64,000 bases of DNA, taken from the NCBI GenBank assembly GCA_963769935.1, contig CAVYNY010000022.1, positions 224,001 through 288,000 of the forward strand. The letters run 5' to 3'. Below the pieces are notes generated by a model. The model made no database searches. It was given only the letters and a program-made list of their open reading frames with translations, and was not told the origin of the DNA. Source of the stretch: an uncultured delta proteobacterium. GTDB lineage: Bacteria; Desulfobacterota; Desulfobacteria; Desulfobacterales; JAFDCJ01. This document shows, piece by piece, positions 4,765 to 63,413 of the stretch (positions are counted from its first letter, which is position 1; every line of letters starts with the position of its first letter). The translations under genes were made by a program, and so were the position numbers.

Positions 4765-4845
4765 AGCTTGAGGCTTGGAAGCTGGAAAGCCTGGAGGATA
4801 TCTCCCAAAAGCTTTCTGGCTTTCAAGCCTCCCGGCTTCCCGGCT
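4765..4845. repeat. Paired inverted arms of degenerate 9-mer repeats (AAGCTGGGA word)
   Basis: gcttgaggcttggaagctggaaagcctggagg ... gctttctggctttcaagcctcccggcttcccggct between two permease genes. Confidence 0.75.
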
Positions 4846-4881
4846 AACGCTCGTCCGATTCTTCCTAAATTGAATATCGGT

Positions 4882-5742
4882 TTATGCTGATACAACCTTT
4901 TTTCTCTTGCCGATTGCCATCGTGAGCGCAACCAGCAGAAGGCTGACAAACATAAAAAATATCGCCATGGCGGCCGCCATGGGCATATTGGTCTGGTAGA
5001 TTGCCTGGTCGGTGATCAGCACGGACAGCGTCCAATGATGCGGACGGCCGAGAATCTGGGGCAGCAGATAGACTCCGAGAGTGAAGACGAACACCATCAC
5101 AAAAGCCGCGACAATGGCGTTGCGCAGCGAGCCTACAATTACCATGAAAAAAGTTTTCAGCGGCGAAGCCCCCAAGGTCAGCGACGCTTCCGGAAGCGCC
5201 GGGTCAAGGCGGGACAGCGACGGGTACAGGACCAGCACGGTGTATGGAAAAGCAAGATAACAGATTCCACAAAGCAGCGCCGCAAACCCCGGATACCACG
5301 CTACGGGTTTGTTCATCAATCCCAACCAGACCAGAAGGTTTGAAATGCCGGCGGTGCGCGACAACAGCAGCGACCAGGCAAAACCGACAATTACTTCCGA
5401 CAGCGACAGCACCGACATTAAAAACACCAGCCAGACTACCTGGGCCCGCCGCCGCATCCGGGTTATAAAATAAGTGAAGGGAAACCCGAGAGACACACAT
5501 ACCGCAGCCGAGAGCCCAGCAATAAACAAGGAAAACAACAGTGTTCGTCCAAAAAGCGCCGTATAGAGATTCCGGTAGTTTGTCAGCTCAAAACCGGCAA
5601 TATAAAAGCCGCCGACCTCCCGATGAAAAAAGCTGACGGCAATCATCATTCCGAAGGGTATTACAAAAAATACGCCCAGCATGACGGCCGGGTACACTAA
5701 CGGCAGGTGGGCGCGGACACCTTTTGGCTTTTCTCCGATCAT
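4882..5742 (-). CDS. Polyamine-type ABC permease (PotB-like)
   Basis: EASLTLGASP loop, PQILG; overlaps the ATPase stop. Confidence 0.9.
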   Translation of the reverse strand: MIGEKPKGVRAHLPLVYPAVMLGVFFVIPFGMMIAVSFFHREVGGFYIAGFELTNYRNLYTALFGRTLLFSLFIAGLSAAVCVSLGFPFTYFITRMRRRAQVVWLVFLMSVLSLSEVIVGFAWSLLLSRTAGISNLLVWLGLMNKPVAWYPGFAALLCGICYLAFPYTVLVLYPSLSRLDPALPEASLTLGASPLKTFFMVIVGSLRNAIVAAFVMVFVFTLGVYLLPQILGRPHHWTLSVLITDQAIYQTNMPMAAAMAIFFMFVSLLLVALTMAIGKRKKVVSA

Positions 5743-6797
5743 GATTTCAGCACCACACAGGCCGCCGCCGGAAGGACAACCGTGGCCTTGTCTCCCTGTC
5801 TTACCTGCGGTCTGCCTTTGGGTGTCGATTGACTCACTATTTGAATCCCATTGCAGTTGAGATAGATTTCGACGCTGGAGCCCACATCCCTTATGAAAGA
5901 GACGGTTCCATGCAACCGGTTTTCCCCTTTTTCGATACCCGGCAGCACGCGAATGTCTTCCGGCCGTATCGACACAGTGACGGATGTGCCGGCCGACAGG
6001 CCTTCCGCTGATTCTTCAACGATTAAGCGTTCGGCCCCGATTTTGATTTCTCCGTCTCCGCTGCAGGTTCCCTGCAGCAGATTGCTGGAGCCTATGAAAT
6101 CCGCCACGAACGTATCGGCCGGCTGGCGATAGATCGCCAGCGGGGAGCCCATCTGGTGGACACGATTGTCCGGGCCCATGACCACTACCAAATCCGACAT
6201 GGTCATGGCTTCGCGCTGATCGTGGGTGACGAGGATGGTGGTTATTGCAAGACGCTGCTGAAGCTCGCGCAGCTCCAGCTGCATGCTTTCGCGCAGTTTG
6301 GCATCAAGCGCCGACAGCGGCTCATCCAGCAAAAACAGCCGCGGTTCGATGGCCAGGGCGCGTGCAATGGCAACCCTCTGGCGCTGACCGCCGGAAAGCT
6401 GCGATACATAGCGATCCATATAGCCGGATAATTGCACAAGATCCAGGAGTTCGGCGGCTTTTTTGTGTTGAGCTGCTTTGTCGGCATGGCGAACCCGCAG
6501 ACTGTAGGCCACGTTTTCTCCCACGGTTAAATGGGGAAACAGGGCCAGAGACTGAAAGACCATACCGAAATTGCGCTTGTGGGCCGGTGTTTGAGTAATA
6601 TCTTCGGTATCAAGCAGAATGCGTCCCCGGGTGGGATTTTCCAGCCCGGCAATGAGTCGCAGAAGGGTCGTCTTACCGCATCCCGAAGGACCTAAAAAAC
6701 AGACAAACCGTCCGTTGGGTAAATTAAGATTTACATCCCGGGCGGCCACCACCGTGCCGAACTGTTTGTGGATGTCTTCGAGAATTAAGCCGGCCAT
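5739..6797 (-). CDS. Polyamine-type ABC ATPase (PotA-like)
   Basis: GPSGCGKT, LSGGQRQR, LLDEP, C-terminal TOBE-like region. Confidence 0.92.
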   Translation of the reverse strand: MAGLILEDIHKQFGTVVAARDVNLNLPNGRFVCFLGPSGCGKTTLLRLIAGLENPTRGRILLDTEDITQTPAHKRNFGMVFQSLALFPHLTVGENVAYSLRVRHADKAAQHKKAAELLDLVQLSGYMDRYVSQLSGGQRQRVAIARALAIEPRLFLLDEPLSALDAKLRESMQLELRELQQRLAITTILVTHDQREAMTMSDLVVVMGPDNRVHQMGSPLAIYRQPADTFVADFIGSSNLLQGTCSGDGEIKIGAERLIVEESAEGLSAGTSVTVSIRPEDIRVLPGIEKGENRLHGTVSFIRDVGSSVEIYLNCNGIQIVSQSTPKGRPQVRQGDKATVVLPAAACVVLKS

Positions 6798-6798
6798 A

Positions 6799-7152
6799 AA
6801 AAGTGCCTAAAGTGCCTAAAATGTCTAAAATGCCTATAAATGCCTAAAATTGAAACTGGTCATTGGCCTCTGGTTCTTGGCTCCTTATTTCTGGTTTAAG
6901 GTGTCAGGTGTCAGAAAACAGATGACGGAGAACAGATGACAGAAGTCAGATCTCGGAATTGAGAATCTGGAAAAGAGGCGAAGGTGGGAAGATAAGAAGG
7001 TGCGATAAGAAACGAAACGATTGTGTAAGTCGTAAGCTATCAAGCCATCTTCCATCATCTATTGTTTATCTTCAACCCTAAACCTTGAGCCATTCGCCTT
7101 AAGCCTAACACCTTTAACCTCTAACCCTATACCTTTTACCTTTCACCTTCTG
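6799..7152. repeat. Mosaic stack of degenerate short tandem repeats
   Basis: Blocks of AAAGTGCCT (about x5), GGTYMTT, GGTGTCA, ACAGATG, GAAGATAA, then pyrimidine-rich TAAC(C)CT/TTTACCT blocks. Confidence 0.8.
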
Positions 7153-7172
7153 CTCTCAATCTTTTATCTTGA

Positions 7173-7209
7173 GAACAAAACGGTCGGAGCCGATTGACGA
7201 CTCCGACCG
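7173..7209 (-). terminator. Intrinsic terminator or mRNA-stabilising hairpin after the binding-protein gene
   Basis: CGGTCGGAG...CTCCGACCG stem followed by TTTTGTT on the minus strand. Confidence 0.7.
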
Positions 7210-8395: not shown

Positions 8396-8598
8396 GGTTC
8401 AGGGTTCAGGGTTCAGGGTTCAAGGTTCAGAGGTTATACGCAATGGACAATGCTGCCAATATTTATATAGGATTCAGAACGCCCGAGATATCCTCTTGGG
8501 TTTAACGGCTTTTTAAACGCAAAGAAGACAGAATCCCTTTGATTCGATTTGTCCGTAAGTTTTTCAACGCTGAACGCTGAACCCAGAACGTTTCAACC
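8396..8598. repeat. Inverted heptamer-array arms (GGTTCAG x5 ... CTGAAC[G/C] x3-4) around about 130 bp of unique DNA
   Basis: ggttcagggttcagggttcagggttcaaggttcag ... aacgctgaacgctgaacccagaacg. Confidence 0.8.
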
Positions 8599-8845: not shown

Positions 8846-10180
8846 ATGAGTGGAAAATACAATGTCATGGATGAGGCGTCGCGCCTCATTTTGCACCGAA
8901 CCCCCCAGGCGGATGTGAAAAAGGGGATTCCCATAATGGTCAAGGGTGAGGGGTGTCGCCTGATCGACAAAGAGGGCAAGCGCTATCTCGACATGGAAGC
9001 GGGAATCACACGGCCGGTGCACATCGGTTATGGCCGGGAGGAAGTGGCCCGGGCCGCTTACGATCAGATGTGCCGGCTGCACTACTTCAGTCCCTCGGGA
9101 TATGCCAATGAGCCGGCCCTGGATCTGGCAAACCTGCTGGCCAGAATCACGCCGGGCGACATCAACCGGTTTACCTTTGAATGTTCCGGTTCCGAGGCGG
9201 TTGAATCTGCCATGAAACTGGCAAAACACTACCACTATTTCAGAGGCAACAAGGCCTGTTTCAAAGTTATCTCCCGCAAAGGCGGTTATCATGGTGTCAA
9301 TGGATACGGCGTCAGAGCCCTCGGCACGGTGATGCCCATGCGCCATATGATGGAGCCCATCGCCCCCGGAGCCGTACATGTCGAGCCGCCGTATTGTTAT
9401 CGCTGCCCATATGGACTGGCGTATCCGGACTGTGATCTCAAGTGCGCCCGGGACATCGAACGGGCCATCGAGTTTGAAAATCCTGAACTCATTACCGCTT
9501 TTATCGGAGAACCCATCATGCAGGGATTCGGGGCCTTGTCGCCGCCCAAGGAATACTGGCCGATGGTGCGGGGGATTTGCAACAAATACGATATCCTGCT
9601 CATTATCGACGAGGTCATTTGCGGTTTCGGACGCACCGGCAAAATGTTCGGCGTCGAGCACTTTGCTATTCATCCGGACATGCTGACCATGGCCAAAGGG
9701 ATCAGCAGCGGATATGTTCCCCTGGGGGCCGTCGGCTGTACCGACAAGGTTATGGAACCGATTGAAACTTTCTTCCATCTGCACACTTACGGCAATCACC
9801 CCGTTGCCTGCGCCGCCGCATTGAAAAATATCGAGATCATGCAGACCGAAAAGTTGATCAACAATTCGGAAGAAATGGGGCAATATTTTCTGGCATGTCT
9901 GAAAAACCTGGAGCAGCATGCCGTTGTCGGCGAAGCCCGGGGCCGGGGCCTGTGGCTGGCGCTGGATTTAACCGCCGACAAAAAGACCCGTGCGCTTTTT
10001 CCCTTGGACCGCATTGCCAATATGATCCGCCGCGCCAAGCAGCTCGGCGTCATCATCAAAGGCATCGGATGTGCCCTTGAATTCGCACCGCCGCTGATCA
10101 TTACCAAAGAAGAAATCGATGAGGCGATGAAGGTGATCGAGCTGTGCATTGCAGAAGAAGAAAAGAATATGAGAATGTAG
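8846..10180 (+). CDS. Class III PLP aminotransferase (omega-amine/polyamine transaminase-like)
   Basis: SGSEAVESAMK, GYHG, IIDEVICGFGRTG, PLP Lys in TMAKGISSGY, HTYGNHP. Confidence 0.92.
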   Translation: MSGKYNVMDEASRLILHRTPQADVKKGIPIMVKGEGCRLIDKEGKRYLDMEAGITRPVHIGYGREEVARAAYDQMCRLHYFSPSGYANEPALDLANLLARITPGDINRFTFECSGSEAVESAMKLAKHYHYFRGNKACFKVISRKGGYHGVNGYGVRALGTVMPMRHMMEPIAPGAVHVEPPYCYRCPYGLAYPDCDLKCARDIERAIEFENPELITAFIGEPIMQGFGALSPPKEYWPMVRGICNKYDILLIIDEVICGFGRTGKMFGVEHFAIHPDMLTMAKGISSGYVPLGAVGCTDKVMEPIETFFHLHTYGNHPVACAAALKNIEIMQTEKLINNSEEMGQYFLACLKNLEQHAVVGEARGRGLWLALDLTADKKTRALFPLDRIANMIRRAKQLGVIIKGIGCALEFAPPLIITKEEIDEAMKVIELCIAEEEKNMRM

Positions 10181-10212
10181 ATTCTAATCTCTGTTTTATT
10201 TATTTAGGACCC

Positions 10213-10466
10213 GGATTCTCGCGGATTGACACGGATTGAATAGCTGTTGAGCCCTTGAGTTCGTAAGCCGACAGTTGATGAGTTGGTAAGTTCGTAAGCT
10301 CGTTAGTTGGTAAGCTATAAAAGTTCGTGAGTTCGTGAGTTGGTAGGCTGGTTAGGCGCTTAGTTATAATTTCTTCGCATTTTATGAAAAAAATTTTCGC
10401 CACCAAGACCCAAAGACACAAAGATGAAAATTAACTTAAGGTTTTGCTTCGTGTCTTGGTGCCTTA
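10213..10466. repeat. Mosaic stack of short tandem repeats
   Basis: C[G/A]CGGATT word, long TAAGTTCG/TGAGTTGG 8-mer array, and paired CACCAAGA/CACAAAGA ... GTGTCTTGGTG arms. Confidence 0.8.
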
Positions 10467-10482
10467 GAAAAACAGGAGAAAA

Positions 10483-11172
10483 ATGAAAATCATCGATCTT
10501 TCACACATCATCCACGACGATATCCAGATATATCCCGGAGACCCGGCACCTTCGATCAAGCGAGGGCTGACCCATGAAAAAGACTACTGTCATGTCGATG
10601 TTTTGACCCTGGGGTCTCATACCGGGACTCACATCGATGCACCGTTTCATTTTTTTAAGAAAGGGAAAAAAATCGACGAATTCCCGGTTCAGCGGTTTGT
10701 CGGCGACGGCGTCCTGATCGATGTTTCCGCCAAATCGGACCGGACGTTGATTGAACCTGAAGATGTCGAGGCCTATAGAACTGAGATTGCAGATGGCGAT
10801 TTTGTGATTTTTAGAACCGGCCGGGATAGGTACTTTGGAACTCCCAGGTATTATCTGCATCCCTTCCTGAGCCCTCAAGGAGCGCAGCTGTTGGTTAAAA
10901 TGGGTGTTTCGCTGGTGGGAATCGATGCCCTGAATATCGACCCGACCTATTATGAGATCACAGAGGCCGACACGTCCGCAAAAAACCTGCCGGACGAAGA
11001 GGAATATGGTTATCCGGTTCACGATATCCTGCTCGGCAACGATTTGCTGATCGTGGAAAACCTTTGCAACCTGGAGAAGATCAGACAGATAAAGGGTATC
11101 TATTCGTTCCTGCCGCTTAAATTAAAGGACGCGGATGGATCACCGATCAGAGCCATATTTATGATGAAATAA
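10483..11172 (+). CDS. Cyclase family metal hydrolase (kynurenine formamidase-like)
   Basis: HTGTHIDAPFH (HxGTHxDxPxH), VGID, ENL, DGSPIRA. Confidence 0.9.
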   Translation: MKIIDLSHIIHDDIQIYPGDPAPSIKRGLTHEKDYCHVDVLTLGSHTGTHIDAPFHFFKKGKKIDEFPVQRFVGDGVLIDVSAKSDRTLIEPEDVEAYRTEIADGDFVIFRTGRDRYFGTPRYYLHPFLSPQGAQLLVKMGVSLVGIDALNIDPTYYEITEADTSAKNLPDEEEYGYPVHDILLGNDLLIVENLCNLEKIRQIKGIYSFLPLKLKDADGSPIRAIFMMK

Positions 11173-12975: not shown

Positions 12976-13781
12976 TTTGACTTTCTCCGGCCAAATACCA
13001 GAATCTCCGTAGTTATCACCAATACGACGGAGACGAGGAAAACAACGCTGCCGACAGCGTTGGTTTTTGGATTAAGACCGCTGCGCAGAAGACTCCAGAT
13101 TTCCACCGGCAGCGTTACATCAAAACGGCTCACCAGCAGTGCAATAATAAATTCATCCCAGGAAAGGGTGAATGAAAGAAAAAATGAAGCCATCAACGCC
13201 GGCCATAAAAGCGGCAGACTTATCAGCACCAGAACCTGCCATTCGGCGGCCCCCAGATCGCGGGCGGCCCGTTCAAGATTGGCCTGGTGCTCACCCATCT
13301 GGCTGTAGATTATGGCAAATGCCAACGGAAGATTGATAACCACGTGGCCGATGGTTACCGCCAGCAAGGATTTGGGTATATCCATGGTTTTAAACGTAAT
13401 GAGCAGTCCCATACCGATAATCAGATAAGACACGCTGAGCGGCGCCACCAGCAGCCATTGGACAACTCCCGAACCGCGCACCTTATAGCGGGCCAGGCCG
13501 TAGGCAGCCAGAAATCCCAATAAACAGGAAAGCGTCGAAGAAACCACAGCCACCATCAGCGAGTTCCCCAAGGCGTCCATGATCCGAAAGTCGCTGAAAA
13601 CGGCCGCATACCATCGCAAAGAGGGACCTTGAAACGGCGGGATCGGCAGCAGGGAATCCTGAAAGGAAAACAATATCAGAACTGCCACCGGCGTGAATAT
13701 AAACAGGTAAACCAGCGCAACATAAACGACGGCGGGTAGATTTTTGAATATACTTCGCATCATCCCTCTAACACCGGGCAA
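12972..13781 (-). CDS. Polyamine ABC permease (PotC-like)
   Basis: RAARDLGA, FTLSWDEF, TLP; start may be a few codons downstream. Confidence 0.9.
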   Translation of the reverse strand: MPGVRGMMRSIFKNLPAVVYVALVYLFIFTPVAVLILFSFQDSLLPIPPFQGPSLRWYAAVFSDFRIMDALGNSLMVAVVSSTLSCLLGFLAAYGLARYKVRGSGVVQWLLVAPLSVSYLIIGMGLLITFKTMDIPKSLLAVTIGHVVINLPLAFAIIYSQMGEHQANLERAARDLGAAEWQVLVLISLPLLWPALMASFFLSFTLSWDEFIIALLVSRFDVTLPVEIWSLLRSGLNPKTNAVGSVVFLVSVVLVITTEILVFGRRKSK

Positions 13782-13803
13782 ATCGAAATCGAGAAAAAAA
13801 ATT

Positions 13804-13883
13804 AATCACGAAATCACGAAAGGACGAAAACACGAAAAAAAACAAGATAAATTTCGTGGTTTTTAAATTTCGTGATTTCGTGG
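13804..13883. repeat. Paired inverted arms of the 8-mer CACGAAAT
   Basis: aatcacgaaatcacgaaaggacgaaaacacgaaa ... tttcgtggtttttaaatttcgtgatttcgtggt. Confidence 0.8.
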
Positions 13884-13935
13884 TGAAAAAGTTAATTACT
13901 AAAATGCAAAATCTTCACTTTTAAGACTCTAGAAA

Positions 13936-14784
13936 TCACATCCTTTCAATTTTCAGCCAGCGTGAGAACATCAGGAATATAATCGAGATAACCACCATCA
14001 AGACCAGGCTCATGGCAGAAGCCATGGGAAAGTCTGCCAGACGCTGAATCTGCAGCATAATGGCCTGGGGCAGCAGCACCTCCCGGAAGCCGCCCAGAAT
14101 CTGGGGTGTAATGTAATCTCCCAGCGCCAGCACGATGGTAAGAAAGGCCCCCACCATGACACCGGGTATGCTCAGGGGCAGGGTGATCCGCCAGAAGGTC
14201 TGCCAGCGGGATGCACCGAGATCGGCCGCCGCCTTTCTGTAATTCGGCGAGATCTGCACCAAGTTGGCGAAAATGGTCAGGGTCAACAGCATGGTAAAAA
14301 AATGGACAAATCCCAGAACCGTGGCCGTTCGGCTATTGGCAAGCGAGATCGGATTTTCCACGATTCCCAGCCACTGAAGCACGTTGCTGATGATCCCGTT
14401 GCCGGAGAGCACCAGCAGCCAGCTGTAGGAGCGGACCAGGTACGATGTCCAGAATGGCAGAATTGCCATCATCAGTGCGATCCGCTGCCATCTGGCCGGC
14501 ACCCGGAAGGCCAGGATATATGCCAGCGGGTAGGCCAGGATAATACTGATAATGGTCGTAATCAGGGTGACTTCCAGCGAATTGACAAGGGCATTGATAT
14601 GATAGGGTTTAGAGAAAAAAGCATAATAGTTGTTAAAGGACAGATCCGTGACGATCCGTCCCCCGGTCCGCTGAAAAAGGCTGTAGGCTGCCATAATCAG
14701 CAATGGAGCCACAAAGAAGGCGATAGTCCATAAAAGGCCGGGGCCGATAAAGCCCCAGCCTTTGATGTTTCTTTTTTTCCGCAT
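13936..14784 (-). CDS. Polyamine ABC permease (PotB-like)
   Basis: LPFWTSYLVRSYSW, AAADLGA, ITPQILGG. Confidence 0.9.
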   Translation of the reverse strand: MRKKRNIKGWGFIGPGLLWTIAFFVAPLLIMAAYSLFQRTGGRIVTDLSFNNYYAFFSKPYHINALVNSLEVTLITTIISIILAYPLAYILAFRVPARWQRIALMMAILPFWTSYLVRSYSWLLVLSGNGIISNVLQWLGIVENPISLANSRTATVLGFVHFFTMLLTLTIFANLVQISPNYRKAAADLGASRWQTFWRITLPLSIPGVMVGAFLTIVLALGDYITPQILGGFREVLLPQAIMLQIQRLADFPMASAMSLVLMVVISIIFLMFSRWLKIERM

Positions 14785-15881: not shown

Positions 15882-15967
15882 ATTTTACCCTCCTTTGTAA
15901 TTTGTTTTGAGCGGCATAGTGTCAAAATCGCCCGCAGGTGTCAATTGAGAAATTGGTTTATGGAAAA

Positions 15968-16047
15968 AGCTGGGAGGCTTGAAGGCTGGGAAGCTGGGAG
16001 GCCACTCGCATTGAAGATTGAAGATTGAAAATTGAATATTTGTGGTA
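15968..16047. repeat. Unpaired repeat arms (AAGCTGGGA about x4, TTGAAGA x4)
   Basis: aagctgggaggcttgaaggctgggaagctgggagg; ttgaagattgaagattgaaaattgaatatttgtgg, closely matching the reverse complement of 51793-51819. Confidence 0.8.
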
Positions 16048-16049: not shown

Positions 16050-16214
16050 TTAAAAGACATCAAAGCCGATGAGAGCATCCTTGACGCTAACGGTTTGCCG
16101 GATATCACGAAAGTAAAGCCGTTTATCTATGACAGTGCCGGTCCGGGCTATTATGCGCTGGGCGACTTCCTGGGCAAGTGCTATTCAGTCGGGCGAAAAA
16201 AAGGACAGATATGA
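16050..16214 (+). pseudogene. C-terminal fragment of a flavin reductase/flavoredoxin family gene
   Basis: [39 protein letters not shown] resembles the family C-terminus; 5' part replaced by the repeat arm. Confidence 0.6.
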
Positions 16215-17152
16215 AGAGCGGCGAAAGATCCATAACAAAAATACTGGATGACGGCGGCCCATTTGTTATCTGGGAAAAAGAAAAGAGGGGGACCTTCAGG
16301 CGAGGAATTATGCTGGATACCAGGGTTTGTGATAATCCCGAATGCCGGTACCTCCATTTCCAGGCGGTTGCCATTGATGAACGGTATAATAATATGAAAT
16401 TTAAAGGGAGAAAATTTGTTTATACGGTTGAGTCGGATATCAGTCATAAAACAGAACCGCTCCCGAATCAGACTTTAACGGCTTCGATCCATATGGATTC
16501 TGCCAAGATTTCGGTCCATGACGACACTTCTTTAGAAAAGAAGGATCAAGATTTTTTGAGATGGCTGACCAGAGAAGTAAGAGGCGATTATTTTGAAGTG
16601 ATGAAAAGGCGCTGGCGAATGGCCAAAAAGGTGGATCGTGACCGCTGGCGAAATTTAGATTGGAGCTGGTGGAAACCCGGTTTGGTTGTCGGGTGGGATG
16701 AAATATATCCTGATGATCCTGATTTTATATTTGATATCTCCGGGACGAAGTATTGGGCCAGGGATTTGTACTGCATAAATCCCGGATGTACATGTAAAGA
16801 TATCAAGATATCATTTGCCGAATTTTATGACAGGAATAACCCCAAAGAGCTAGGTGCGGTGGGAATTGATCTCAATAAATTTCGTATTGACGGGATAGAT
16901 GCTATCGGGACATCGGCTGAAAATTTGACCCAAATTTGGCAGAAATTTCAAAAAGAAGCCGGCGTAAAAGGAACCATAAAAGCACGTCAAAAGGAGATGA
17001 AGATCATCGGGAAAGAAATTGCAGAATTAAGCCTCAAAAACAAATCAAAAGGCCTAAAATCTTTTTCAAAAGCGGGGCCCAAGGTGGGCCGCAATGATCC
17101 CTGTCCGTGCGGTTCCGGTAAAAAGTATAAGAAGTGCTGTCTTAACAAATGA
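16211..17152 (+). CDS. SEC-C metal-binding motif protein
   Basis: C-terminal [20 protein letters not shown]; internal CDNPEC and [12 protein letters not shown] at 16211 overlaps the upstream TGA, AAGGA RBS. Confidence 0.85.
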
Positions 17153-27775: not shown

Positions 27776-27906
27776 TCAGTGGTCCGCTGCGGTCTTGTTG
27801 TCTGAAACAATTCGAATTATCAAATTCCAGACACATGATTTCGAATTGATGAAAATCCATCATCATTGACAATATTCCGATATGGTGGTAACTCTGGAAT
27901 AAAAAT

Positions 27907-27994
27907 CACTGGGGGAGCCGCAATACCCGGCTGAGAGGAGGCTGAATGCCTCGACCCCTGGACCTGATCCGGATAATGCCGGCGTAGGGAAGTC
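27907..27994 (+). ncRNA. TPP riboswitch
   Basis: GGGGAGC...GCTGAGA...GACCC..GACCTGATCCGGATAATGCCGGCGTAGGGAAG consensus, upstream of a THI5-type ABC system. Confidence 0.92.
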
Positions 27995-28058
27995 ATTTGC
28001 ATCACATCCCAATTCCTTCCTTTCCTCCGACTGAGATCCGCATCGGAGGAGCCGCTGC

Positions 28059-28799: not shown

Positions 28800-29001
28800 T
28801 AATAGATCGGGTGATCGCCCTTTGAATCATCGAATTGGAAAAATCCCGGCAGATACAAATGGGAAGAACGCTGTGTATTTATTGTAAGGGATTTCTGTTA
28901 TGAACATCGTTACATTAACTGACGGGCTCAACCCAACCGAAACCACGATTTTTAGTTCAGGCCCTTGCTGGGGGAAAAGCCTAGAAAATGCGCAGCATAA
29001 A

Positions 29002-29100
29002 ATAATTTATCCGCCGGACCGTCATTTAAAATACGTTCTACAGCTCTTAAATAGCAGCGTCTAACCCTAAATATCTCATTGTCAAGGGCGGAGAAATTAT
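29002..29100 (+). repeat. About 98-bp inverted-repeat-bounded element, copy A
   Basis: ATAATTTATCCGCCGGACC ... AGGGCGGAGAAATTAT; colinear with 30961-31058. Confidence 0.7.
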
Positions 29101-29842: not shown

Positions 29843-29847
29843 GGTGT

Positions 29848-29936
29848 TGGCCGGTTTGCCCGTTTGCCGGTCAACCCGTTACCGGTTAGCCTTTCAGTTT
29901 CCACGGGTCAACGGGGCAACGGGCTCACCGGCCAAC
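29848..29936. repeat. Paired inverted arms of the 8-mer TTGCCCGT/ACGGGCAA
   Basis: ggccggtttgcccgtttgccggtcaacccgtt ... acgggtcaacggggcaacgggctcaccggcc. Confidence 0.75.
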
Positions 29937-39262: not shown

Positions 39263-39395
39263 GAAGGTTAAAGGTCAAAGGCAAAAGGCTAAAGGATCCG
39301 GCAAAGGGTATGGCGCGTGGTGCATAGAGCTGAGGGCAAAGGGCAGGGGAAAAATGCCTAAATTGCCTAAAGTGAACTAAAATGCCTAAAATTTA
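39263..39395. repeat. Mosaic repeat stack directly after the gdhA stop
   Basis: AAAGG[T/C]N x5, GGGCA-type 7-mers, AAA[A/G]TGCCT 9-mers. Confidence 0.8.
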
Positions 39396-41013: not shown

Positions 41014-41988
41014 TCAACTATTTTTATTCAAACAGCACTTTTTATATTTTTTCCCACTGCCGCAGGGGCAAGGATCATTTCTGCCGACTTTCGGCGAATC
41101 TCTTTTAAACGGAACTACCTTTCCGCCCTCCTCAAGCGTCCCTCGTGATTTATTCTTTTTATAATTGGCCGCCAGTTCGTTTAGTTCTTTTTGCCTGGCT
41201 TTTTGTCTTTCTTCTTGTTCTTTTCGTTTTCCGAAAATATCCGGCATTTCTGGAATATTCACATTATGGATTATGCTGAGACATTCCAGATCATCCCCTA
41301 TGTAAGTTGCATCATTTTCATTGGCATAAACATGCTGCAATTTTTCAATCCCTCGAGGATCACCAATGCCTCGCAAACAACCAGCAAACAATTCATATGA
41401 ATCCATATCATAGTTTTCGTCCTCCCATCTCTGCAAAGCAAGATCATAGGCCTCAGAATAAGGAAGATACTCAAGAATTGAAAAGCTTTGCCAGTCGTCT
41501 AATTCTTTGTTTTTAATTGCAGCAAGAATAACTTCGTCTGCGGACTCATCCAGTGCATTCATTGATCTAATCGCATCACTGTAAATATAATCCATTCTGT
41601 TCTCGTTGTCGATTTTTCCAAGATATTCTAAAATACCCCAAAAAGCTTCTGCACTTTTAACAGATGAAAAATATTCGAGCATCACATCGATGGCTGGTTC
41701 ATAAAACTTATTTCCCAGAGCTATTGCACAGTTACTGGGGATATTACCGTGATCCTTTTTAAAACTATCTAAGATAGCCGGTGCGTGCTGAAAAGCTTCA
41801 TGCATCGCAAGATATCTTGGAGCAGCGCATGCCAAATGCTCGACCTCATCGCCAATAAGGATACTTACTTCGTCTGTGTACCTGTTCGGATAATGGTTCT
41901 CTATAGCTGCGAAAGCCCAGCACCGGACTATTTTATTTTGATGGGATAGATGATTTACATAGTCTTCATAATTCCAGAGTTTACTCAT
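41014..41988 (-). CDS. HEAT-like repeat protein with C-terminal SEC-C motif
   Basis: [14 protein letters not shown]-like segment; [20 protein letters not shown]. Confidence 0.8.
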
Positions 41989-42336: not shown

Positions 42337-42348
42337 GGTAGTTGCTTT

Positions 42349-42503
42349 AGTTGAATGGTTGATTAGTTGATTGAGTTTATTGAGTTGATTCAGTTGATGG
42401 GTTGACTGGGTGATAACTTAAAAATAAACCGTTGGGATTGTTGATCGTTGATGGTTGATAGCAGAAAGGCTGGAAAGCTAGGATGCCGGGAGGCTGGAAG
42501 GCG
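42349..42503. repeat. Mosaic repeat stack
   Basis: TTGATTGAG 9-mers (reverse of the 37610 word), GTTGAT[C/G/T] 7-mers, AGGCTGGAA 9-mers. Confidence 0.8.
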
Positions 42504-42542
42504 GTATTCGACGAAGGAAAGAAAATCGCCGCGACCGGTTTA

Positions 42543-43770: not shown

Positions 43771-43870
43771 GTTTGGAATTTTGAATTTCAGTCATTGTGA
43801 ATTGTCCGAAACTTGATATTTGTTATTTGGTATTTTTTTGCTGAAACCTGAACACTGACACCCGATACCT
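43771..43870. repeat. Mosaic repeat stack
   Basis: TTG[G/A/T]WAT heptamers, then CTGAAAC/CTGACAC heptamers (reverse of the 6900 word). Confidence 0.7.
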
Positions 43871-47433: not shown

Positions 47434-47739
47434 GATCGTTGAGATCGTTGAGATCGTGAAATATGCACTTTGCGCCTTACCCTATACTTTATACTTTAAT
47501 ATCTTATACCCTATGCTCTTTGCCCTCTGCCCTATGCTCCATGACCTTTGCTCCATGCCCTATGCCTTTTGCCCTATGGTCTATGCCTTCGCCTCTTTCT
47601 TAGCCTTCCGTCATTCCAGCTTCCCATCTTTTCCTTATTCTCACTCTCTCACCATGTACCACTTTCCCCGTTTCCCCGTTTCAATCTTTTCAAACTTTCT
47701 GATCTTCTAATCTTCTGCTCTTCTCGTCTTCTAACCCTC
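47434..47739. repeat. Mosaic repeat stack filling the whole intergenic gap
   Basis: GATCGTTGA x3, TATACTT, TATGCCC (about x10), TTCCAGCTT, TTTCCCCG x2, TCTTCTNN x5. Confidence 0.85.
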
Positions 47740-49608
47740 TCACTCTCCCATATCATCCAGTTCTTTTAACTCACGATTAAACTCAGCATTTCGAGTGTCC
47801 AACTCACCGGTGACTTTTTCAAGTTCATTAAACAGGTAGTCAATTGCCGTTTGACAGGCATGGATGGAGCGGGAGAGCCCGGCGATGCGGATCCCGTCCT
47901 GTTCCTCGGAAGCCTGCTGCATGGCGCGGTTGAGTTGATCCAGCTCGATTTCGCGGGTTTCGATTTCGTTTTCAATACTCTTGATACGCTTTTCAAGCGG
48001 TTTTACCGTTTTCGATCTCAGGTTGGTGATCTCGGATCTTTTGCGCCGCATTTCTTTTCTGGTCTGTTTGGCCGCTGCTGTTTTGAAAGTGATTTTTGAC
48101 CGGCCGGCCGGTATGGCTGAATTTTCATCCTGCCAACCGCCCTTTTCGAGAAACTCCTGATATCGACCGTCGAATGTTTCGATTCGATCATTTTGAAATA
48201 CAACCAGTCTTTCAGCCAGGGAATGCAAAAACATCTCATTGTGGGTCACCATGATTACGGTTCCCTCAAAAAGGTCGATGGCGGCCAGCAATGCATCGCA
48301 GGATTCCATGTCCAGGTGGTTGGTCGGTTCATCAAGAAGCAGCAGGCTGACCGGAGTGGCCAGCAGCTTTCCCAGCATTACCCGGCTTTTTTCGCCGCCG
48401 GACAAGACGCTGATTTTTTTTAAGGCATCATCCCCGGAAAACATCATGGCACCGCAAATATTGCGGGCCCGCTGCCGGTCAATATCCGGGTGGGAATAGA
48501 GTATTTCCTCCTCGACCGTTCGGGTATCCACCAGGCTCCTGACGTTGGTTTGTTCAAAAAAGCCCTTGATCGTGGCCGGATGATATTCAACCGTTCCGGA
48601 CCGCGGCCTCAACTCGCCGGCCAACAGTTTGAGCAGGGTGGTTTTGCCTTTGCCGTTTTTCCCGACAACACAGATCCGCTCCTGCGCACCGACTGTGATG
48701 CTGAAGTCCTTTATAACATGACGCTGGTCGGTATAGCCAAACGCGAGATTGCGGGCGCTCAAGACCTGTTTGCCGGGAAACGGGCTACTGCGAAAAGAAA
48801 AGTCCAGGAATTTGACCTCCTCCAGCTTTTCTTTTTTCTCCAATTTTTTAAGGGTCTTGACGCGGGACTGGACCAGATTTGCCAGCCTGGCCTTGGCGCG
48901 AAAGCGGGTGATAAATTGCTGAATTTCTTTGCGGCGGCGTTCATCGTTAATTCTGGTTTTTTCGTATACTTCTTCATCCTGAGCGATCTGGTTGTAGTAC
49001 TTGGCGGTGTCGCCGGCAATTTTACGCAATTTGCGGCGATGGATTCCCATGGTGTGGGTGACCACTTTATCCATAAAACTGCGATCATGGGTAATGAGCA
49101 TCAGCTCATGCGGCCAGGTGCTCAAGAACTGCTCGATCCATCGAATGGAAGTGATGTCCAAAAAGTTGGTCGGTTCATCCAAAAGCAGCAGGTCCGGTTC
49201 CGCAACCAGGGCTTTGACAAGATTCAAGCGCACCTGTAGTCCACCCGAAAATTCTGCGGGACGGCGACCAAAGTCTTCCTGGCTGAAGCCCAGTCCGGCA
49301 AGAATCTTTTCAACCTTCCAGTAGTGATCCTTCTCATGGGCGGGAAGTGCGAGTATTCCTTCTTCAAGCGCCGTATCGGCCGAAAACGAAAGCTGTTGCT
49401 GAACATAAACCATGCGGTAGTTCTTCGGAATAACGATCGCGCCTGAATCCGGCTGCTCTTCTCCGGCGATCAGCCTGAAAAGGGTTGTTTTGCCATGGCC
49501 GTTTTTCCCCACCAGCCCCACCCGCTGTCTCTGGTTGATGGAAAAGGCAATGCCGTCAAAAAGGATTTGACCACCGAAACTTTTTGTCAGATTTTCTACG
49601 CGAATCAT
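47740..49608 (-). CDS. ABC-F family ATPase (YheS/Uup-like)
   Basis: Two NBDs (GKNGHGKT, GKNGKGKT; LLDEPTN x2), no TM, coiled-coil tail. Confidence 0.92.
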   Translation of the reverse strand: MIRVENLTKSFGGQILFDGIAFSINQRQRVGLVGKNGHGKTTLFRLIAGEEQPDSGAIVIPKNYRMVYVQQQLSFSADTALEEGILALPAHEKDHYWKVEKILAGLGFSQEDFGRRPAEFSGGLQVRLNLVKALVAEPDLLLLDEPTNFLDITSIRWIEQFLSTWPHELMLITHDRSFMDKVVTHTMGIHRRKLRKIAGDTAKYYNQIAQDEEVYEKTRINDERRRKEIQQFITRFRAKARLANLVQSRVKTLKKLEKKEKLEEVKFLDFSFRSSPFPGKQVLSARNLAFGYTDQRHVIKDFSITVGAQERICVVGKNGKGKTTLLKLLAGELRPRSGTVEYHPATIKGFFEQTNVRSLVDTRTVEEEILYSHPDIDRQRARNICGAMMFSGDDALKKISVLSGGEKSRVMLGKLLATPVSLLLLDEPTNHLDMESCDALLAAIDLFEGTVIMVTHNEMFLHSLAERLVVFQNDRIETFDGRYQEFLEKGGWQDENSAIPAGRSKITFKTAAAKQTRKEMRRKRSEITNLRSKTVKPLEKRIKSIENEIETREIELDQLNRAMQQASEEQDGIRIAGLSRSIHACQTAIDYLFNELEKVTGELDTRNAEFNRELKELDDMGE

Positions 49609-49878: not shown

Positions 49879-49976
49879 ATAAGCGCAAATTCCGGAGTAA
49901 GAAACGAAATGGCGATTGTCGAATGAAGATTAAAGCAATGCTTCAAATTCGGAGTCGACGGTGTGAACCGAACTTA

Positions 49977-50132
49977 GGGCTCACTTAAAAATAATTTCAC
50001 ATTTTATACGCCGCTGCATCCCACCTGGCTGCGTTGCGAAAGCTCGGAATATCCAGATATTCCTGCGTTTTCGCGCCTTGCCAGCCGGGCGTCGCAACGC
50101 CTAAAATTGTGAACTTACCTTTTCGTGAACCC
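49977..50132 (+). mobile_element. 156-bp MITE, copy 1 (TSD TTA)
   Basis: tta-GGGCTCAC...GTGAACCC-tta; imperfect TIR of about 25-30 bp; no credible ORF. Confidence 0.88.
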
Positions 50133-50209
50133 TTAGCAATCAAGCATTCGACTTTCGAGCGTCGGGGTTTATCATTCAACTACACGGGTTGGAGAGGAGG
50201 AGGCCGCCT

Positions 50210-51626: not shown

Positions 51627-51701
51627 TGGGGCGTCGTCAAGTGGTAAGACACAGGATTTTGGTTCCTGCATTCGGAGGTTCGAATCCTCCCGCCCCAGCC
51701 A
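51627..51701 (+). tRNA. tRNA-Gln (TTG)
   Basis: Acceptor TGGGGCG/CGCCCCA, anticodon arm CAGGA-TTTTGGT-TCCTG, GGTTCGAATCC, encoded CCA; usual ispE-prs position. Confidence 0.96.
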
Positions 51702-51708: not shown

Positions 51709-51820
51709 TTGAAGATTGAAAATTGAAGAATGAATATTTAATGAATTCTTTCCGCTTTTAAATTTAAAAGAGGAGGGAGCGAAGCGACATTCACAAATAT
51801 TCAATCTGCAATCTTCAATT
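51709..51820. repeat. Paired TTGAAGA ... TCTTCAA heptamer arms around a short core
   Basis: ttgaagattgaaaattgaagaatgaatatt ... gagcgaagcgacattcacaaatattcaatctgcaatcttcaa. Confidence 0.8.
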
Positions 51821-52837: not shown

Positions 52838-52856
52838 AGATTTAGTTTCAGAGGTT

Positions 52857-52925
52857 TGGGGCTTCGCGCTGTGCGCTTCCGACTTCGCTCTTCGAGCTAC
52901 GACGGGACAAGGCGACCCCACACGC
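52857..52925. repeat. Self-nested ~34-bp hairpin elements
   Basis: Inner CTTCGCTCTTCGAGCTACGACGGGACAAG inside outer CTTCGCGCTGTGCGCTT^CGACCCCACACG. Confidence 0.65.
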
Positions 52926-52979
52926 AGGGTTCAGAGGTTCGCGGTAAATTGGTTCTGAGAATTGGAATTCAGGGGCTAA

Positions 52980-53135
52980 GGGCTCACTCAAAAATAACTT
53001 CACATTTTATACGCCGATGCATCCCGGCTGGCGGCGTTGCGAAAGCTCGGAATATCCAGATATTCCTGCGTTTTCGCGCCTTGTCAGTCGGGCGCCTCAA
53101 CGCCTAAAACTGTGAATTAATATTTTCGTGAGCCC
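52980..53135 (+). mobile_element. 156-bp MITE, copy 2 (TSD TAA)
   Basis: taa-GGGCTCAC...GTGAGCCC-taa. Confidence 0.88.
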
Positions 53136-53222
53136 TAAGGGGGTCGAACAACTCCAACCCTGAACGTTGAAACGCAGAACCTCGGAACCTACAACTATTA
53201 ACTACATAGGAGGTCACTTCTT

Positions 53223-53879: not shown

Positions 53880-54124
53880 AATTTCGGTAGGCTGGAGAGC
53901 GCGCACGGCAACGGCCGATGAAGGCGGTTTTGGGGCAGGCTATCCAGCCATCTGCTATGATGGCGCTGACAGGCGGTCTATCGACAATTTGTTGTCGACT
54001 ACTTCGAAGGTGTCAGGTTTCAGCACCGCCTGTGGCCGCGAACATCCGGTTTGATCGTATAAGAAACTTTATGAAGTTTCACAACAAGCTGTTGGAAAAA
54101 ATGGCCTAAGCGCCTATATTTTCT

Positions 54125-58481: not shown

Positions 58482-58521
58482 CTGCTTTTTTGCCGTTTTC
58501 CCAACGGAGCACGCAGTGATG

Positions 58522-58789
58522 TTGGAGGTTTGAGGTTGGAGGCAGAAAGATAAAAAATACCAGGCTTAAGTACAAGGTGCAGGGTTTCGGGTTTGCAGCA
58601 GGGTCTACGGGGCCGGCTGATAGTTGATGGTTGATTGGGTTGCCGGAAAGATGGGTCCCCGCAATGCTCATGAGCTTTGATGCTCACGGACTAAGAACTC
58701 ATGAACTTCTGAGCTTACGAGCTTGCAAACTTAGTATCTTCCAACCTCCCAACTTTCCAGCTTCTGTTATCTGTCCTCTGTCTTCTGTT
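58522..58789. repeat. Mosaic repeat stack between convergent rluD and rnfA
   Basis: GAGGTT[T/G], GTTGATG 7-mers, AACTCATG/AGCTTACG 8-mers, TTCCAACCT 9-mers, TCTGTCC 7-mers. Confidence 0.8.
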
Positions 58790-59365
58790 CTACACCATCC
58801 CCTTGAAGGCTAAAAAGGTAAGGGAGAGAACCCCGGCCGTCACCAGGGCGATGGAGGTGTCCTGCAGAGGACGCGGGACGCGGGCCAAAAGGATTTTTTC
58901 CCGGACACCGGCGAATAGGACCAAGGCCAGGCCGAACCCCACCGCGTAGGCGAAGGATGCCACCAGCGTCTGCATGAAGTTATACTCTTCGTTGATATTA
59001 ATCAGGCACACGCCCAAGACGGCGCAATTGGTGGTAATCAACGGTAAAAAGATGCCCAATCCCGCATAAAGGGCAGGGATGCTCTTTTTTAAAAACATCT
59101 CCACAAACTGGACCAGTGAGGCGATCACCAGAATAAACGCTACGGTTTGAAGGTATTTCAGATCATATTTGACCAGGAAGTAGGTGTAGGTCATCCAGGT
59201 GAACACGCCGGCCAGCACCAGGACGAAGACCACCGCCATGGCCATGCCGATGGCGGTTTCCATTTTCTTGGATGTCCCTAAAAAGGGGCAGTTGCCCAGA
59301 TACTGGGCCAGCAAAATATTATTAATCAGGATACAGCTGATGGCAAGAACTAATAAATCACCCAT
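58790..59365 (-). CDS. rnfA: Rnf complex subunit A
   Basis: YLGNCPFLG, LVQFVEM, LPLITTNCAVLG. Confidence 0.95.
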   Translation of the reverse strand: MGDLLVLAISCILINNILLAQYLGNCPFLGTSKKMETAIGMAMAVVFVLVLAGVFTWMTYTYFLVKYDLKYLQTVAFILVIASLVQFVEMFLKKSIPALYAGLGIFLPLITTNCAVLGVCLININEEYNFMQTLVASFAYAVGFGLALVLFAGVREKILLARVPRPLQDTSIALVTAGVLSLTFLAFKGMV

Positions 59366-61545: not shown

Positions 61546-62821
61546 CCGTTGCCTCCGCGGTTTTAGCCCGGTTCAATTCATATTTGGCTAACCTGATGTA
61601 CTGAAAAATCGGTATCTTGGATACACAAACATAGCTGCACAGTCCGCATTCGATGCAGGAATACAGATCGTAGCCGTCGGCAGCTTCCTGATAGTGTCCG
61701 GCTTCTAAAAATCTGACCAGCATGTTGACTGACATTTGAGCAGGACAGGCCCGCACGCAATTGCCGCAATTGATGCAGGGATAATCGGATGTGGAGGCGG
61801 CCTTGGTCCGATCCAGCACCATAATGGCATCGGTGTCGGGCAAAATCGGTTGGTCCAGCGAATACACCGCCGTACCCGTCATGGGTCCGCCGAATATTAT
61901 GCGGTCCGCTTCGTTGATGGTGACATCATAAGCTGAAAGAATATCGCGGATGGGCGTTCCGATCGTCGTTTCAATAATTCGCTGATTTTCTTCTTTGGTT
62001 ATCAGGGTAAGGACCTTGCGAACCGGGATCTGGCCGCTCTCGTAGGCGCTGCCGAGGGAGACCACCGCTTCGACGCTCATAAAGCAGACACCCAGATCTT
62101 CACAGCTTTTGCCGGCCGGCACGATCTCTCCCAGGACATTTTTCATGATCATCTGGGGCAGGGCGGCCGGATAGGTGGTGTCAATGCTTTTGCCATCGGC
62201 TCCGATATGACCGAAACCTTGAAGGGCATCCCGGGCCGTCACCAGAATAACGCGTTTGACGCCGGTAATTTGCTTCAGGATCTCAATGCCGCCTTTTAAA
62301 TCGGCGATGCGGGTTTTGGTAATATACTGCCGGGTTCCGACCAGCAGATCGCTGTCGGCGCCCGTTATGACAATGGCTTTGACCGGATGTTCTGATGCCG
62401 CCAGCTTTGCCAGCGGGGGACTGCCCGGTGTGAATGCAAGAAAGTCAAGGGCATTCGCCAGTGTGACGGTCTGACATTGCGCCGCAAACTGGTCGTCTAT
62501 GGTTTCATTTTTATCGATATCGATGGTGACGGCGCTGTAGGTTTTGCCGAAATCACCGGTGTGCGGCGCGATGCCGGAAATGGTGCCGCCGGCACTGGCA
62601 ATGATATAGGCCGGGTCAGCCGCATACAGCGAAATTTTCTGGCCGGTTTTAACCTTGTCGCCGATGTGGAAGGCGGCAGGTGCCTTTTGAGCGGCCTTTT
62701 TAGGATGGTAAAGCGTAACTGTTTTTGATGCCGTCACCCTTTCAGGCGCAGGCAGTCGTGTGGGGAGCAGCCGGTATTGAAATTGCGGAATGTAAAGGCC
62801 GACAAACGATTTTTTAAGCAT
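61538..62821 (-). CDS. rnfC: Rnf complex subunit C, divergent
   Basis: GDKVKTGQ, GTPI, GGPMTG, two CxxCxxCxxxC motifs; first in the CDGEA order. Confidence 0.85.
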   Translation of the reverse strand: MLKKSFVGLYIPQFQYRLLPTRLPAPERVTASKTVTLYHPKKAAQKAPAAFHIGDKVKTGQKISLYAADPAYIIASAGGTISGIAPHTGDFGKTYSAVTIDIDKNETIDDQFAAQCQTVTLANALDFLAFTPGSPPLAKLAASEHPVKAIVITGADSDLLVGTRQYITKTRIADLKGGIEILKQITGVKRVILVTARDALQGFGHIGADGKSIDTTYPAALPQMIMKNVLGEIVPAGKSCEDLGVCFMSVEAVVSLGSAYESGQIPVRKVLTLITKEENQRIIETTIGTPIRDILSAYDVTINEADRIIFGGPMTGTAVYSLDQPILPDTDAIMVLDRTKAASTSDYPCINCGNCVRACPAQMSVNMLVRFLEAGHYQEAADGYDLYSCIECGLCSYVCVSKIPIFQYIRLAKYELNRAKTAEATDA

Positions 62822-62894
62822 AGCACAACCTTTTTTTGTAATGCTGGGAAATTAGATCTCTGCGTCGCGGGCGGCAGTCACGTGATTTTCCGAT

Positions 62895-63284
62895 TTACCT
62901 GACATGGCACGCCGTACAATCTTTTTGGGACGGTCCGGAACCATAGGCCTCGTGACAGCCGCCACACTGCTTGTGGATAGCGTCCGCGAGTGCCGGAACT
63001 TCTTCATCGCCCTCATCCGGTGAATGACATTCGCTGCACGATTGGGCATTATTGTATTCATCTTCAGCGAGCGTGTGATGACAGTCACCGCATGACAACC
63101 CGTAGCCCGCGGCCGAATAATGCTTTTTGTGGTCAAAGATTACATTTCCCGCGGTGACTTCATACTTTATGCGAATCGGATCATGGGGCTTTTGGGGAGG
63201 AAATGCCGCATAACACAACACACCGACGAAAAGAAAATAGATGATCAGACCGTATGCCAGTTTCAGCTCGTTTTTTGAAAACAT
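62895..63284 (-). CDS. Tetraheme cytochrome c3 family protein
   Basis: CGDCH, CSECH, CGGCH, CTACH; VIFDHKKH; N-terminal signal/anchor. Confidence 0.9.
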   Translation of the reverse strand: MFSKNELKLAYGLIIYFLFVGVLCYAAFPPQKPHDPIRIKYEVTAGNVIFDHKKHYSAAGYGLSCGDCHHTLAEDEYNNAQSCSECHSPDEGDEEVPALADAIHKQCGGCHEAYGSGPSQKDCTACHVR

Positions 63285-63375
63285 ATTCCGTCCATACCTT
63301 AGATTCTAGTTTTGAAAACCTGATTTTCCGGGCCAGGTCAGTCCGCATGAGCCGCATTGCTGCAGTTGAACGCCA

Positions 63376-63413
63376 TGGGGTACTGGAATAATGAAATGTT
63401 GGAGTGCTGGGTT
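63376..63413. repeat. Degenerate 8-mer array (TGGAGTAC word)
   Basis: TGGGGTAC TGGAATAA TGAAATGT TGGAGTGC TGGGTT. Confidence 0.6.

Follow-up and report, generated by a model that had tools for sequence, protein, structure and literature searches.

Intergenic tandem-word arrays of a Desulfobacterales genome as probable terminal arms of small four-helix or GxxExxY cassettes and of their gene-less derivatives

We analyzed a window of 64,000 nucleotides (G000:C22:224001-288000, contig CAVYNY010000022.1 of assembly GCA_963769935.1) from an uncultured delta proteobacterium of the Desulfobacterales, whose genome, called G000 here, amounts to 8.0 Mb in 41 contigs. Its intergenic gaps hold tandem arrays of short words of 7, 8 or 9 bp, and we propose, with a probability of roughly 0.7, that these words form the two inverted ends, or arms, of small cassettes, the complete ones bearing either a TIGR02436 four-helix-bundle gene or a GxxExxY gene, and that the matched pairs and the stacks of several words are gene-less derivatives, likely spread as units and likely trimmed to orphan arms. 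What was observed comprises the arms, their polarity and cargo, the link between word and protein lineage, gaps that are empty, loaded or differently filled depending on the genome, a derivative with an internal deletion, and a loaded cassette in nested position. In the following, G-numbers denote genomes, L-numbers cargo-gene loci in relatives, and X-numbers public sequencing runs, from which assembled contigs only were used.

Genome-wide, over 1.8 Mb of intergenic DNA, we counted 723, 349 and 224 arrays of period 7, 8 and 9, against 4, 2 and 6 after block shuffling; periods 5 and 6 gave only 8 (7 shuffled) and 13 (3 shuffled). A total of 1329 arrays cluster into roughly 25 word families, in a library that merges some words, GAGATTT and likewise ATTTGGT each holding two with opposite directions. 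A profile scan at a cut-off of 24 bits, for which a one-third sample gave 12 false per 1038 real hits (about 1%), found 2913 arms spread over 1427 of the 4302 gaps, a total of about 110 kb or 1.4% of the genome; a scan at 17 bits gave about 33% false hits and was dropped. Genes were called with a simple dicodon model, by which some AT-rich genes are missed and start positions are loose. An earlier, sequence-only reading of the window had stated that most larger gaps carry such blocks, and 18 of the 34 gaps of 100 bp or more are indeed armed (tallied at 22 bits); no arm lies in the island that we take from the window translations to be kdp, between 17478 and 26603 (the names prs, rplY and pth used below are presumed in the same way). 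Of its 31 listed word positions, 27 have at least two near-copies, a near-copy having one mismatch for 7- and 8-mers or two for 9-mers within -15/+50 bp. The remaining positions (52845, 4810, 47610 and 58740) have one near-copy each and three of them fall inside profile-detected arms, 52845 being a weak arm missed by the profile scan. Its words were confirmed too, except that TCAACACAA is no separate word but the right-hand form of GTTGAGTTT.

The arrays are not assembly artefacts, since public-run contigs cross several arms with 0-3 differences. The pair at 4770-4845 is crossed by a contig of run X1, possibly the source sample (1 difference), and, up to 4845, by a contig of run X2, which belongs to another study (0 differences); the stack at 6800-7170 is mostly crossed by an X1 contig (6816-8221) and the pair at 29846-29936 by an X2 contig. 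Arrays of related strains are longer or shorter by entire units (-8 at 4830, -8 at 29909 and +7 at 37887). Single words are patchy across the order, because the exact GAAGATT-array pattern occurs in only 8 of 61 genomes. An Rfam scan of the window returned only a thiamine pyrophosphate (TPP) riboswitch and a tRNA, with no attC or other Rfam family in the arms.

The arrays are strongly polarized. Among 160 gaps holding both G-rich and C-rich arrays, the G-rich one is on the left in 150, and this is true in all four gene arrangements. With family profiles, a strict order of left arms followed by right arms was found in 606 of 630 gaps (permutation mean 257, maximum 297), a count for which the orientation of one family was flipped post hoc and one mixed family (ATTTGGT/AAATAAC) was removed; before this flip and drop, 536 of 613 gaps were strictly ordered. 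The polarity and order tests still hold (525/539 gaps) without the two word families touched by a MITE (miniature inverted-repeat transposable element) of the IS110 family, and the fitted arm directions agree with the arm found upstream of cargo genes in other genomes. The AAATYYC family runs the opposite way (109/120). The sequence-only reading was right that arms face inward whatever the gene direction, and its rule of a G-rich form on the left is not universal, AAATYYC, AAATAAC and AAAGTGCCT departing from it: the inward direction is fixed for each word separately, and most, not all, left forms are G-rich.

The arms are also paired. The same word stands on both sides of 423 of the 613 two-sided gaps, where chance gives 60, and 190 of them are without any matched word; same-family neighbours are arranged left-right 554 times and right-left 62 times. 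The five complete pairs noted earlier near 4765, 8396, 13804, 29848 and 51709 were all recovered as matched pairs. Arm duplexes reach -103 kcal/mol versus -73 for mismatched controls, and matched pairs fold far better than shuffles; the mixed stacks at 6797-7175 and 58510-58795 fold no better than theirs. The outermost arm begins at most 15 nt from a stop codon in 372 of 714 cases, and gap use is lowest between divergent genes (75/627), with 120 of 465 convergent gaps used.

The cargo ties the words to proteins. The genome has seven TIGR02436 genes, six of them between matched arms made of six different words. Four-helix genes of G000 stand at C19:30618, C13:92531, C16:12827, C11:329870, C20:251428 and C9:239211, and a GxxExxY gene at C8:188541. 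All 23 genomes of the genus keep a four-helix gene, with 171 matches in total, of which 117 were fetched and 115 placed in a tree. Matched arms from the word library of this genome flank 71 of these 115 genes, and most of the remaining 44 have other matched words, judged by eye. The word follows the protein tree, with 39 label changes versus 68.8 after shuffling and none of 200 shuffles as low, a statistic that overstates the link because many cassettes are inherited at one home gap. Certain four-helix clades are present in more than one gap, and at two gaps the clade varies with the genome. In 98 of 100 cases the cargo gene and its upstream host gene share one orientation, and several cargo genes terminate within their own right arm.

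A second cargo, GxxExxY (TIGR04256; PF13366, PD-(D/E)XK fold), is present in 13 of the 23 genus genomes, flanked by CACGAAAA, CACAGAGA/CGCAGAGA, CAGGATA, CGCAGATT and similar arms, and accounts for the words remaining beyond the four-helix cassettes. Among 78 cross-phylum GxxExxY loci, ACGRAA arms flank nine, precisely the nine nearest to the query, and at least five inverted 8-mers are common to the two sides of the gene in 50 (direct orientation, 23). The two cargoes can occupy the same place, the gap C11:329678-330194 holding a four-helix cassette in G000 and a GxxExxY cassette at L272. Cargo between matching arms was found, in a narrow form of only two families. Matched pairs spaced by 200 bp or more number 77, and 38 of them enclose an open frame; by inspection six of these are four-helix genes, and the others are either ordinary genes between two separate gaps or short frames running over repeat DNA.

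Some loaded loci have features of their own. At G000:C11:329737-330186 the right arm has grown to about 18 near-perfect 9-base units and the gene start is truncated. Genome G007 has six TIGR02436 matches with identical scores, on contigs C133, C3, C17, C42, C108 and C130, which suggests a recently copied gene; the only one of the six that was fetched, L140, has a left arm only. Comparison of L050 with L093 (host gene G000:C9:226254) shows an extra ACAGAGG arm that replaces the host stop and extends the C-terminus.

Relatives carry other alleles of these gaps. Our main comparison is with G008, a relative at about 81% protein identity, and covers 1.58 Mb of its 7.3 Mb. Of 388 syntenic gaps, 52 have a common word, 43 have different words, 105 are armed in one genome only and 188 are arm-free. 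In the prs-rplY gap of 17 congeners, seven have a GGTTCAG pair, two an ATTGAGG-type pair, three are hybrids, three are empty (24-26 bp) and two hold a remnant or nothing. Orthologous gaps thus vary among relatives, empty sites included, and one gap receives different words and cassettes in different relatives, as had been supposed for repeatedly targeted gaps. At G000:C16:272195-272472, between the same arms, an internal-deletion derivative retains the opening 16 and closing 14 codons, joined in frame at a short match, of a gene that four relatives have at this site. Gene-less pairs retain family-specific sub-terminal sequence. The words are, as first supposed, the ends of repeat-bounded units. 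A sub-terminal motif, GGAGCGAAGCGAC, is common to GAAGATT, AATGACG and AAAGTGCCT units (e.g. window 51780-51795) and marks the join in the hybrid L078.

How stacks arise can be followed in part. At L114 an AAATYYC/AAATAAC pair that follows an orphan GGAGTATT arm encloses a loaded CAGGTGT cassette, so that the nested scars proposed earlier do exist, and four of five double pairs are nested. Syntenic gaps include 54 multi-word stacks; in 17 of them G008 has just the outer arm in common, and in 6 just the inner arm, as would fit nesting combined with deletions in the middle. The 10180-10483 stack retains its outer part in run X8, the inner one being replaced. Word order within stacks is non-random (327/470; null 274, maximum 306) and word-word junctions are tight, 289 of 445 being under 20 nt. 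It is likely, then, that new copies arrived inside old ones and that gene-less units spread. With each protein lineage tied to its own word, gene-less units would likely land just behind a host gene or in the loop of an older unit, and mid-unit deletions would likely trim them to orphan arms; polarity would be kept automatically because the insertion falls in the loop, and orphans would arise because the middle is deleted. Foreign right arms occur even in loaded cassettes (L061, L078), and exchange between alleles or loci at common sub-terminal motifs may contribute, as L078 suggests. The signal of local copying is weak, the best partner lying within 20 kb for 10 of 302 units (1.9 expected), and word sharing between neighbouring gaps was not above the highest shuffle (122/733; null mean 104, maximum 131).

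Several results weigh against this interpretation. Only 874 of 2245 arms are mated, and with 61% mate-less, heavy one-sided deletion must be assumed. A lone matched pair in a stack is the inner one 59 times but the outer one 40 times, when pure nesting would be cleaner; stack position and the share of mated arms are uncorrelated (rho 0.23, p 0.34); and the profile fit of outer arms exceeds that of inner arms (1.21 vs 1.11 bits/nt), which nesting alone does not predict. The match of word and clade within the genus is largely inheritance at one home gap, 56 cassettes representing 33 gaps. The single intact GxxExxY gene of the genome is flanked by direct, not inverted, copies. No constant target duplication was found in 11 filled/empty comparisons with the relative at about 81% protein identity, and no fresh insertion or excised circle among the assembled public-run contigs. 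Neither cargo is a known transposase, and no mover is shown.

The earlier statement that no enzyme is visible holds insofar as no proven mover was identified, and is to be amended in that the two cargo proteins have become candidates. In all, 10 RVT_1, 11 Y1_Tnp, 18 integrase-like and 5 IS110 matches occur in the genome. None of 24 reverse transcriptase (RT), Y1 and integrase places examined is enclosed by matched arms, no arm comes within 1.2 kb of any of the 11 Y1_Tnp hits, and no RVT_1 hit is close by coordinates to any of the seven four-helix genes. Each cargo protein is predicted to bind the array of its own word, and we tentatively propose that copying may occur at the DNA level by hairpin cutting and host repair guided by these putative word-binding proteins, with GxxExxY as the likeliest cutter. 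It is conceivable, with similar reserve, that the cassettes form a class of transposase-free mobile elements in which two unrelated small proteins, a pentameric four-helix bundle and a PD-(D/E)XK nuclease fold, would each read lineage-specific words, gene-less copies would home into each other's loops behind stop codons, and stacks would be a layered record of invasion. The cassette interpretation explains anatomy and turnover rather than the enzyme.

An RNA route, in which the unit is transcribed with the host gene, RNase III excises the hairpin as it does an rRNA intervening sequence, an RT writes it back and the pentameric four-helix protein acts like Avd of diversity-generating retroelements, appears rather unlikely. 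The co-orientation of cargo (98/100) agrees with it, as does the better pairing of the arms of loaded cassettes on the coding strand (50/71, p 0.001, for related sequences); gene-less pairs show no clear strand preference of folding (186/348, p 0.10), and use of convergent and of co-directional gaps is equally frequent. In Coxiella, the intervening sequence (IVS) is cut by RNase III at its first heptamer (PMC4990558), Avd is described as a pentameric barrel working with a reverse transcriptase (PMC6182149), and the PDB relatives 2RLD and 2GSC have five chains each. Against the 10 RVT_1 matches of the genome stands that no RT was found between matched arms, and a kinship of TIGR02436 with Avd is presumed.

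We consider it improbable that the host keeps or tunes the arms as RNA-processing or protein-binding sites for the expression of neighbouring genes, their movement being incidental. A third of gaps are armed (1427/4302), often beside core genes, matched pairs fold far better than shuffles, and 23 of 23 genus genomes retain the four-helix gene, all of which would suit such sites. Their words turn over fast, only 52 of 200 armed syntenic gaps having a common word, congeners have empty alleles, and the mixed stacks at 6797-7175 and 58510-58795 lack folding beyond that of shuffles.

Quite improbable, too, is a host transposase acting in trans, such as an IS110-family element at the CAGGTGT arm or an HUH/RAYT enzyme (RAYT, repetitive extragenic palindrome (REP)-associated tyrosine transposase). 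The IS110-family element G000:C37:825-2501 has its ends in common with a 235-bp MITE that lies mostly inside CAGGTGT arms, and 11 Y1_Tnp matches exist; the MITE has its own ends and a fixed length, with the arm as its target, 0 of the 11 Y1 hits has an arm within 1.2 kb, and a single enzyme leaves unexplained why about 25 words follow cargo clades. A young unit of 95-99% identity that resembles a one-armed insertion is this fixed-length MITE, which measures 235 bp in 8 of 8 sized copies and sits mostly in CAGGTGT arms and in its own right end. It is a passenger with its own ends, and one word serves it as landing site. In the window, a CAGGTGT left arm at 54008-54080 (plus strand) is followed by both ends of this MITE, in a minimal copy of about 65 bp; the arm proposed for the word GGTGTCA at 54009 is present, and the sequence behind it is MITE ends. 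A GxxExxY-type hairpin lies inside the MITE.

That the arms are recombination sites which shuffle host genes or varied cargo, as the sequence-only reading had it, is very improbable. The neighbour of rnfA differs among congeners together with the arm there, and even loaded cassettes include hybrids with a foreign right arm (L061, L078). The neighbouring genes are conserved in G008 with similar frequency at mixed and at arm-free gaps (26/43 and 137/260; in the reverse direction 20/34 and 110/244), so that synteny breaks are not in excess at mixed gaps (p 0.31 and 0.11), and matched pairs are if anything more syntenic (49/70; reverse 34/67). Only two cargo families were found. Shuffling of host genes is largely refuted for this one genome pair, over 1.58 Mb of G008, and word stacks are not markers of rearrangement points. 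Microsatellites born in place by slippage are refuted as sole cause, since slippage would give the whole-unit differences between related strains and hence unit number only, not vocabulary, inverted mates (423/613 vs 60 by chance), polarity or cargo.

The nearest known relatives of the proposed cassettes are the 23S rRNA IVS of Coxiella burnetii and Leptospira that bear an open reading frame (S23p, PF05635/TIGR02436): the protein family is the same, loaded members hit both models, terminal inverted repeats form a stem and tandem heptamers precede the start codon (PMC4990558). The Coxiella heptamer GACAGAT (PMC4990558) is a rotation of the window word ACAGATG. Here, in contrast, the units lie outside rRNA genes, the identified flanks being protein genes or a tRNA; about 25 words are in use, most units are gene-less (all of those in the window) and stacked, and GxxExxY is a second cargo on the same design. 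REPINs and their RAYTs are alike in having many gene-less inverted extragenic doublets, few and mostly inherited home genes and a protein type tied to repeat type (PMC3337134). They differ in that the present arms are tandem 7-9-mers rather than single palindromic REPs, the gene lies inside the doublet, neither cargo is an HUH transposase (0/11 Y1_Tnp hits near arms), and inter-type hybrids are common, when none is reported for SBW25 in the parts of PMC3337134 considered.

Like the short tandemly repeated repetitive sequences (STRR), which are heptamer repeats of cyanobacteria, and the TAACTGA repeats of Beggiatoaceae (PMC4679880), the present arrays are intergenic tandem heptamers near gene ends, with an unsettled origin. 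TAACTGA differs in forming direct sets of one word, with one inverted case, and an enclosed four-helix gene is not linked to it in the sections of PMC4679880 considered. Intergenic heptamer repeats and rRNA IVS with a reading frame are of open origin in the portions consulted of PMC4679880 and PMC4990558, respectively. If the transposase-free class proposed above is real, it would unite rRNA IVS with unexplained bacterial heptamer repeats, and dozens of word-protein pairs would coexist in one genome. MITEs in general are shortened by internal deletion with both ends retained, and are more numerous than the complete element. The gene-less units resemble MITEs derived from insertion sequences in both respects, with about 2,900 arms for only about eight cargo genes in the genome, and differ in that complete members carry TIGR02436 or PF13366 genes only, without transposase, and in their variable length and tandem-word arms; as to target duplication, TGAT flanks the insert at 13781-13936, and the 11 comparisons show no common pattern. 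The units are not an integron cassette array, given no TIGR02249 match above cut-off, no attC in the window arms and cargo that is not varied. In full-text literature mostly from outside subscription journals and without supplements, we found no description of armed intergenic cassettes or stacks; GxxExxY has a passing mention beside a CRISPR RT in the consulted part of 10.1101/2021.01.26.428298. Both cargo families are tiny genes without known function, and G000 takes the phenomenon to an extreme, with six loaded cassettes, one per word, present together, a ready set of cognate and non-cognate protein-word combinations and possibly a small natural code reading words of 7-9 bases.

The window itself contains ABC transporters, the kdp island, gdhA, prs-rplY-pth, rluD and rnf genes. 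Several of its sites are gene-less matched pairs. At 4770-4845 a pair of the 8-mer family AAGCTGGG forms a perfect hairpin, with one 8-bp unit fewer in a related strain, and a GGTTCAG (CAGGGTT) pair lies at 8396-8589. The CACGAAAA pair at 13804-13882, between potB-like and potC-like genes, has a GxxExxY-type word that flanks GxxExxY in L274 and L282; it is missing in runs X8 and X12 and also in G008, whose copies of these genes overlap (TGATG); TGAT stands on both sides of the window insert at 13781-13936. A GCCGGTTG pair is found at 29846-29936, with a loaded GCCGGTTG cassette at G000:C11:329737-330186 and a GGTTCAG pair in the same gap of G008. Directly behind tRNA-Gln, the GAAGATT pair at 51708-51821 matches a loaded cassette (G000:C13:92498-92999) in arms and sub-terminal sequence and is absent or replaced in congeners. 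The GGTTCAG pair of the prs-rplY gap (52845-53185) encloses an unrelated 165-bp MITE (52976-53140).

The other sites are stacks or orphan arms. A mosaic of orphan arms only, 6800-7170, abuts the potA start with the left arms AAAGTGCCT, GGTGTCA, ACAGATG/ACAGAGG and AAGCTGGG and a right AAAGGTT arm; in G008 this gap carries a GTTGA-type pair. The stack at 10214-10465, in the aminotransferase/cyclase gap, comprises a CACGGAT-type arm, three GTGAGTTC arms and a small ACCAAGAC hairpin (10401-10465); the gap (10180-10483) measures 11 bp in G008, holds a GxxExxY cassette in the congeners G001 (L284) and G004 (L273), and has different words again in further congeners. A AAGCTGGG and a GAAGATT left arm, both orphans, occupy 15967-16040 (plus strand). 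Between a diguanylate cyclase gene and gdhA (37505-37896), left GGGCAAA/AAGGTAAG and GTGAGTTC arms precede right GTTGAGTTT and GAAGATT arms, and relatives carry other words. A left stack runs from the gdhA stop (39264-39392, plus strand; AAAGGTT, GGGCATA and AAAGTGCCT), where G008 has the outer AAAGGTT arm in common and a GGAGTATT pair within. Further stacks are a left one at 42340-42504 (plus strand; GTTGAGTTT, GATAGTT and AAGCTGGG), a right one at 43772-43870 (minus strand; AAATYYC, AAATAAC and CAGGTGT families) and one reaching the ABC-F stop at 47434-47750, with a left GAGATCGTT arm and right GGGCATA, AAGCTGGG, GAAACGGG and again AAGCTGGG arms. The rluD/rnfA gap has six words at 58517-58791, GGAGGTT, CAGGGTT and GATAGTT on the left and GTGAGTTC, AAGCTGGG and ACAGAGG on the right. 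An orphan GGAGTATT left arm lies at 63375-63410 (plus strand), and a loaded GGAGTATT cassette at G000:C9:239184-239739.

Two low-GC genes of 324 aa with a terminal SEC-C motif (16178-17152 and 41014-41988) each stand beside an orphan left stack; a right arm was not found at either, and they are possibly inserted inside older units. The palindromic 165-bp MITE, with CTAAG/CTTAG-like ends, occurs in the window at 49974-50137, 52976-53140 and 63517-63677, is not tied to arms and gives 81 BLAST hits of at least 130 bp in the genome, some counted on both strands. A 91-bp insert at 30961-31051, with CCGCC/GGCGG ends and a 7-bp direct repeat, is a recent MITE with a clean empty site, as it is missing in runs X8 and X16. 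A related strain (run X8) lacks 311 bp at 28788-29098, and a short GC-rich, REP-like repeated element at 34878-34956 is found in many contigs of four runs. The TPP riboswitch (27901-28007) lies ahead of thiamine-type ABC genes, and the tRNA at 51627-51698 has the GAAGATT pair directly behind it.

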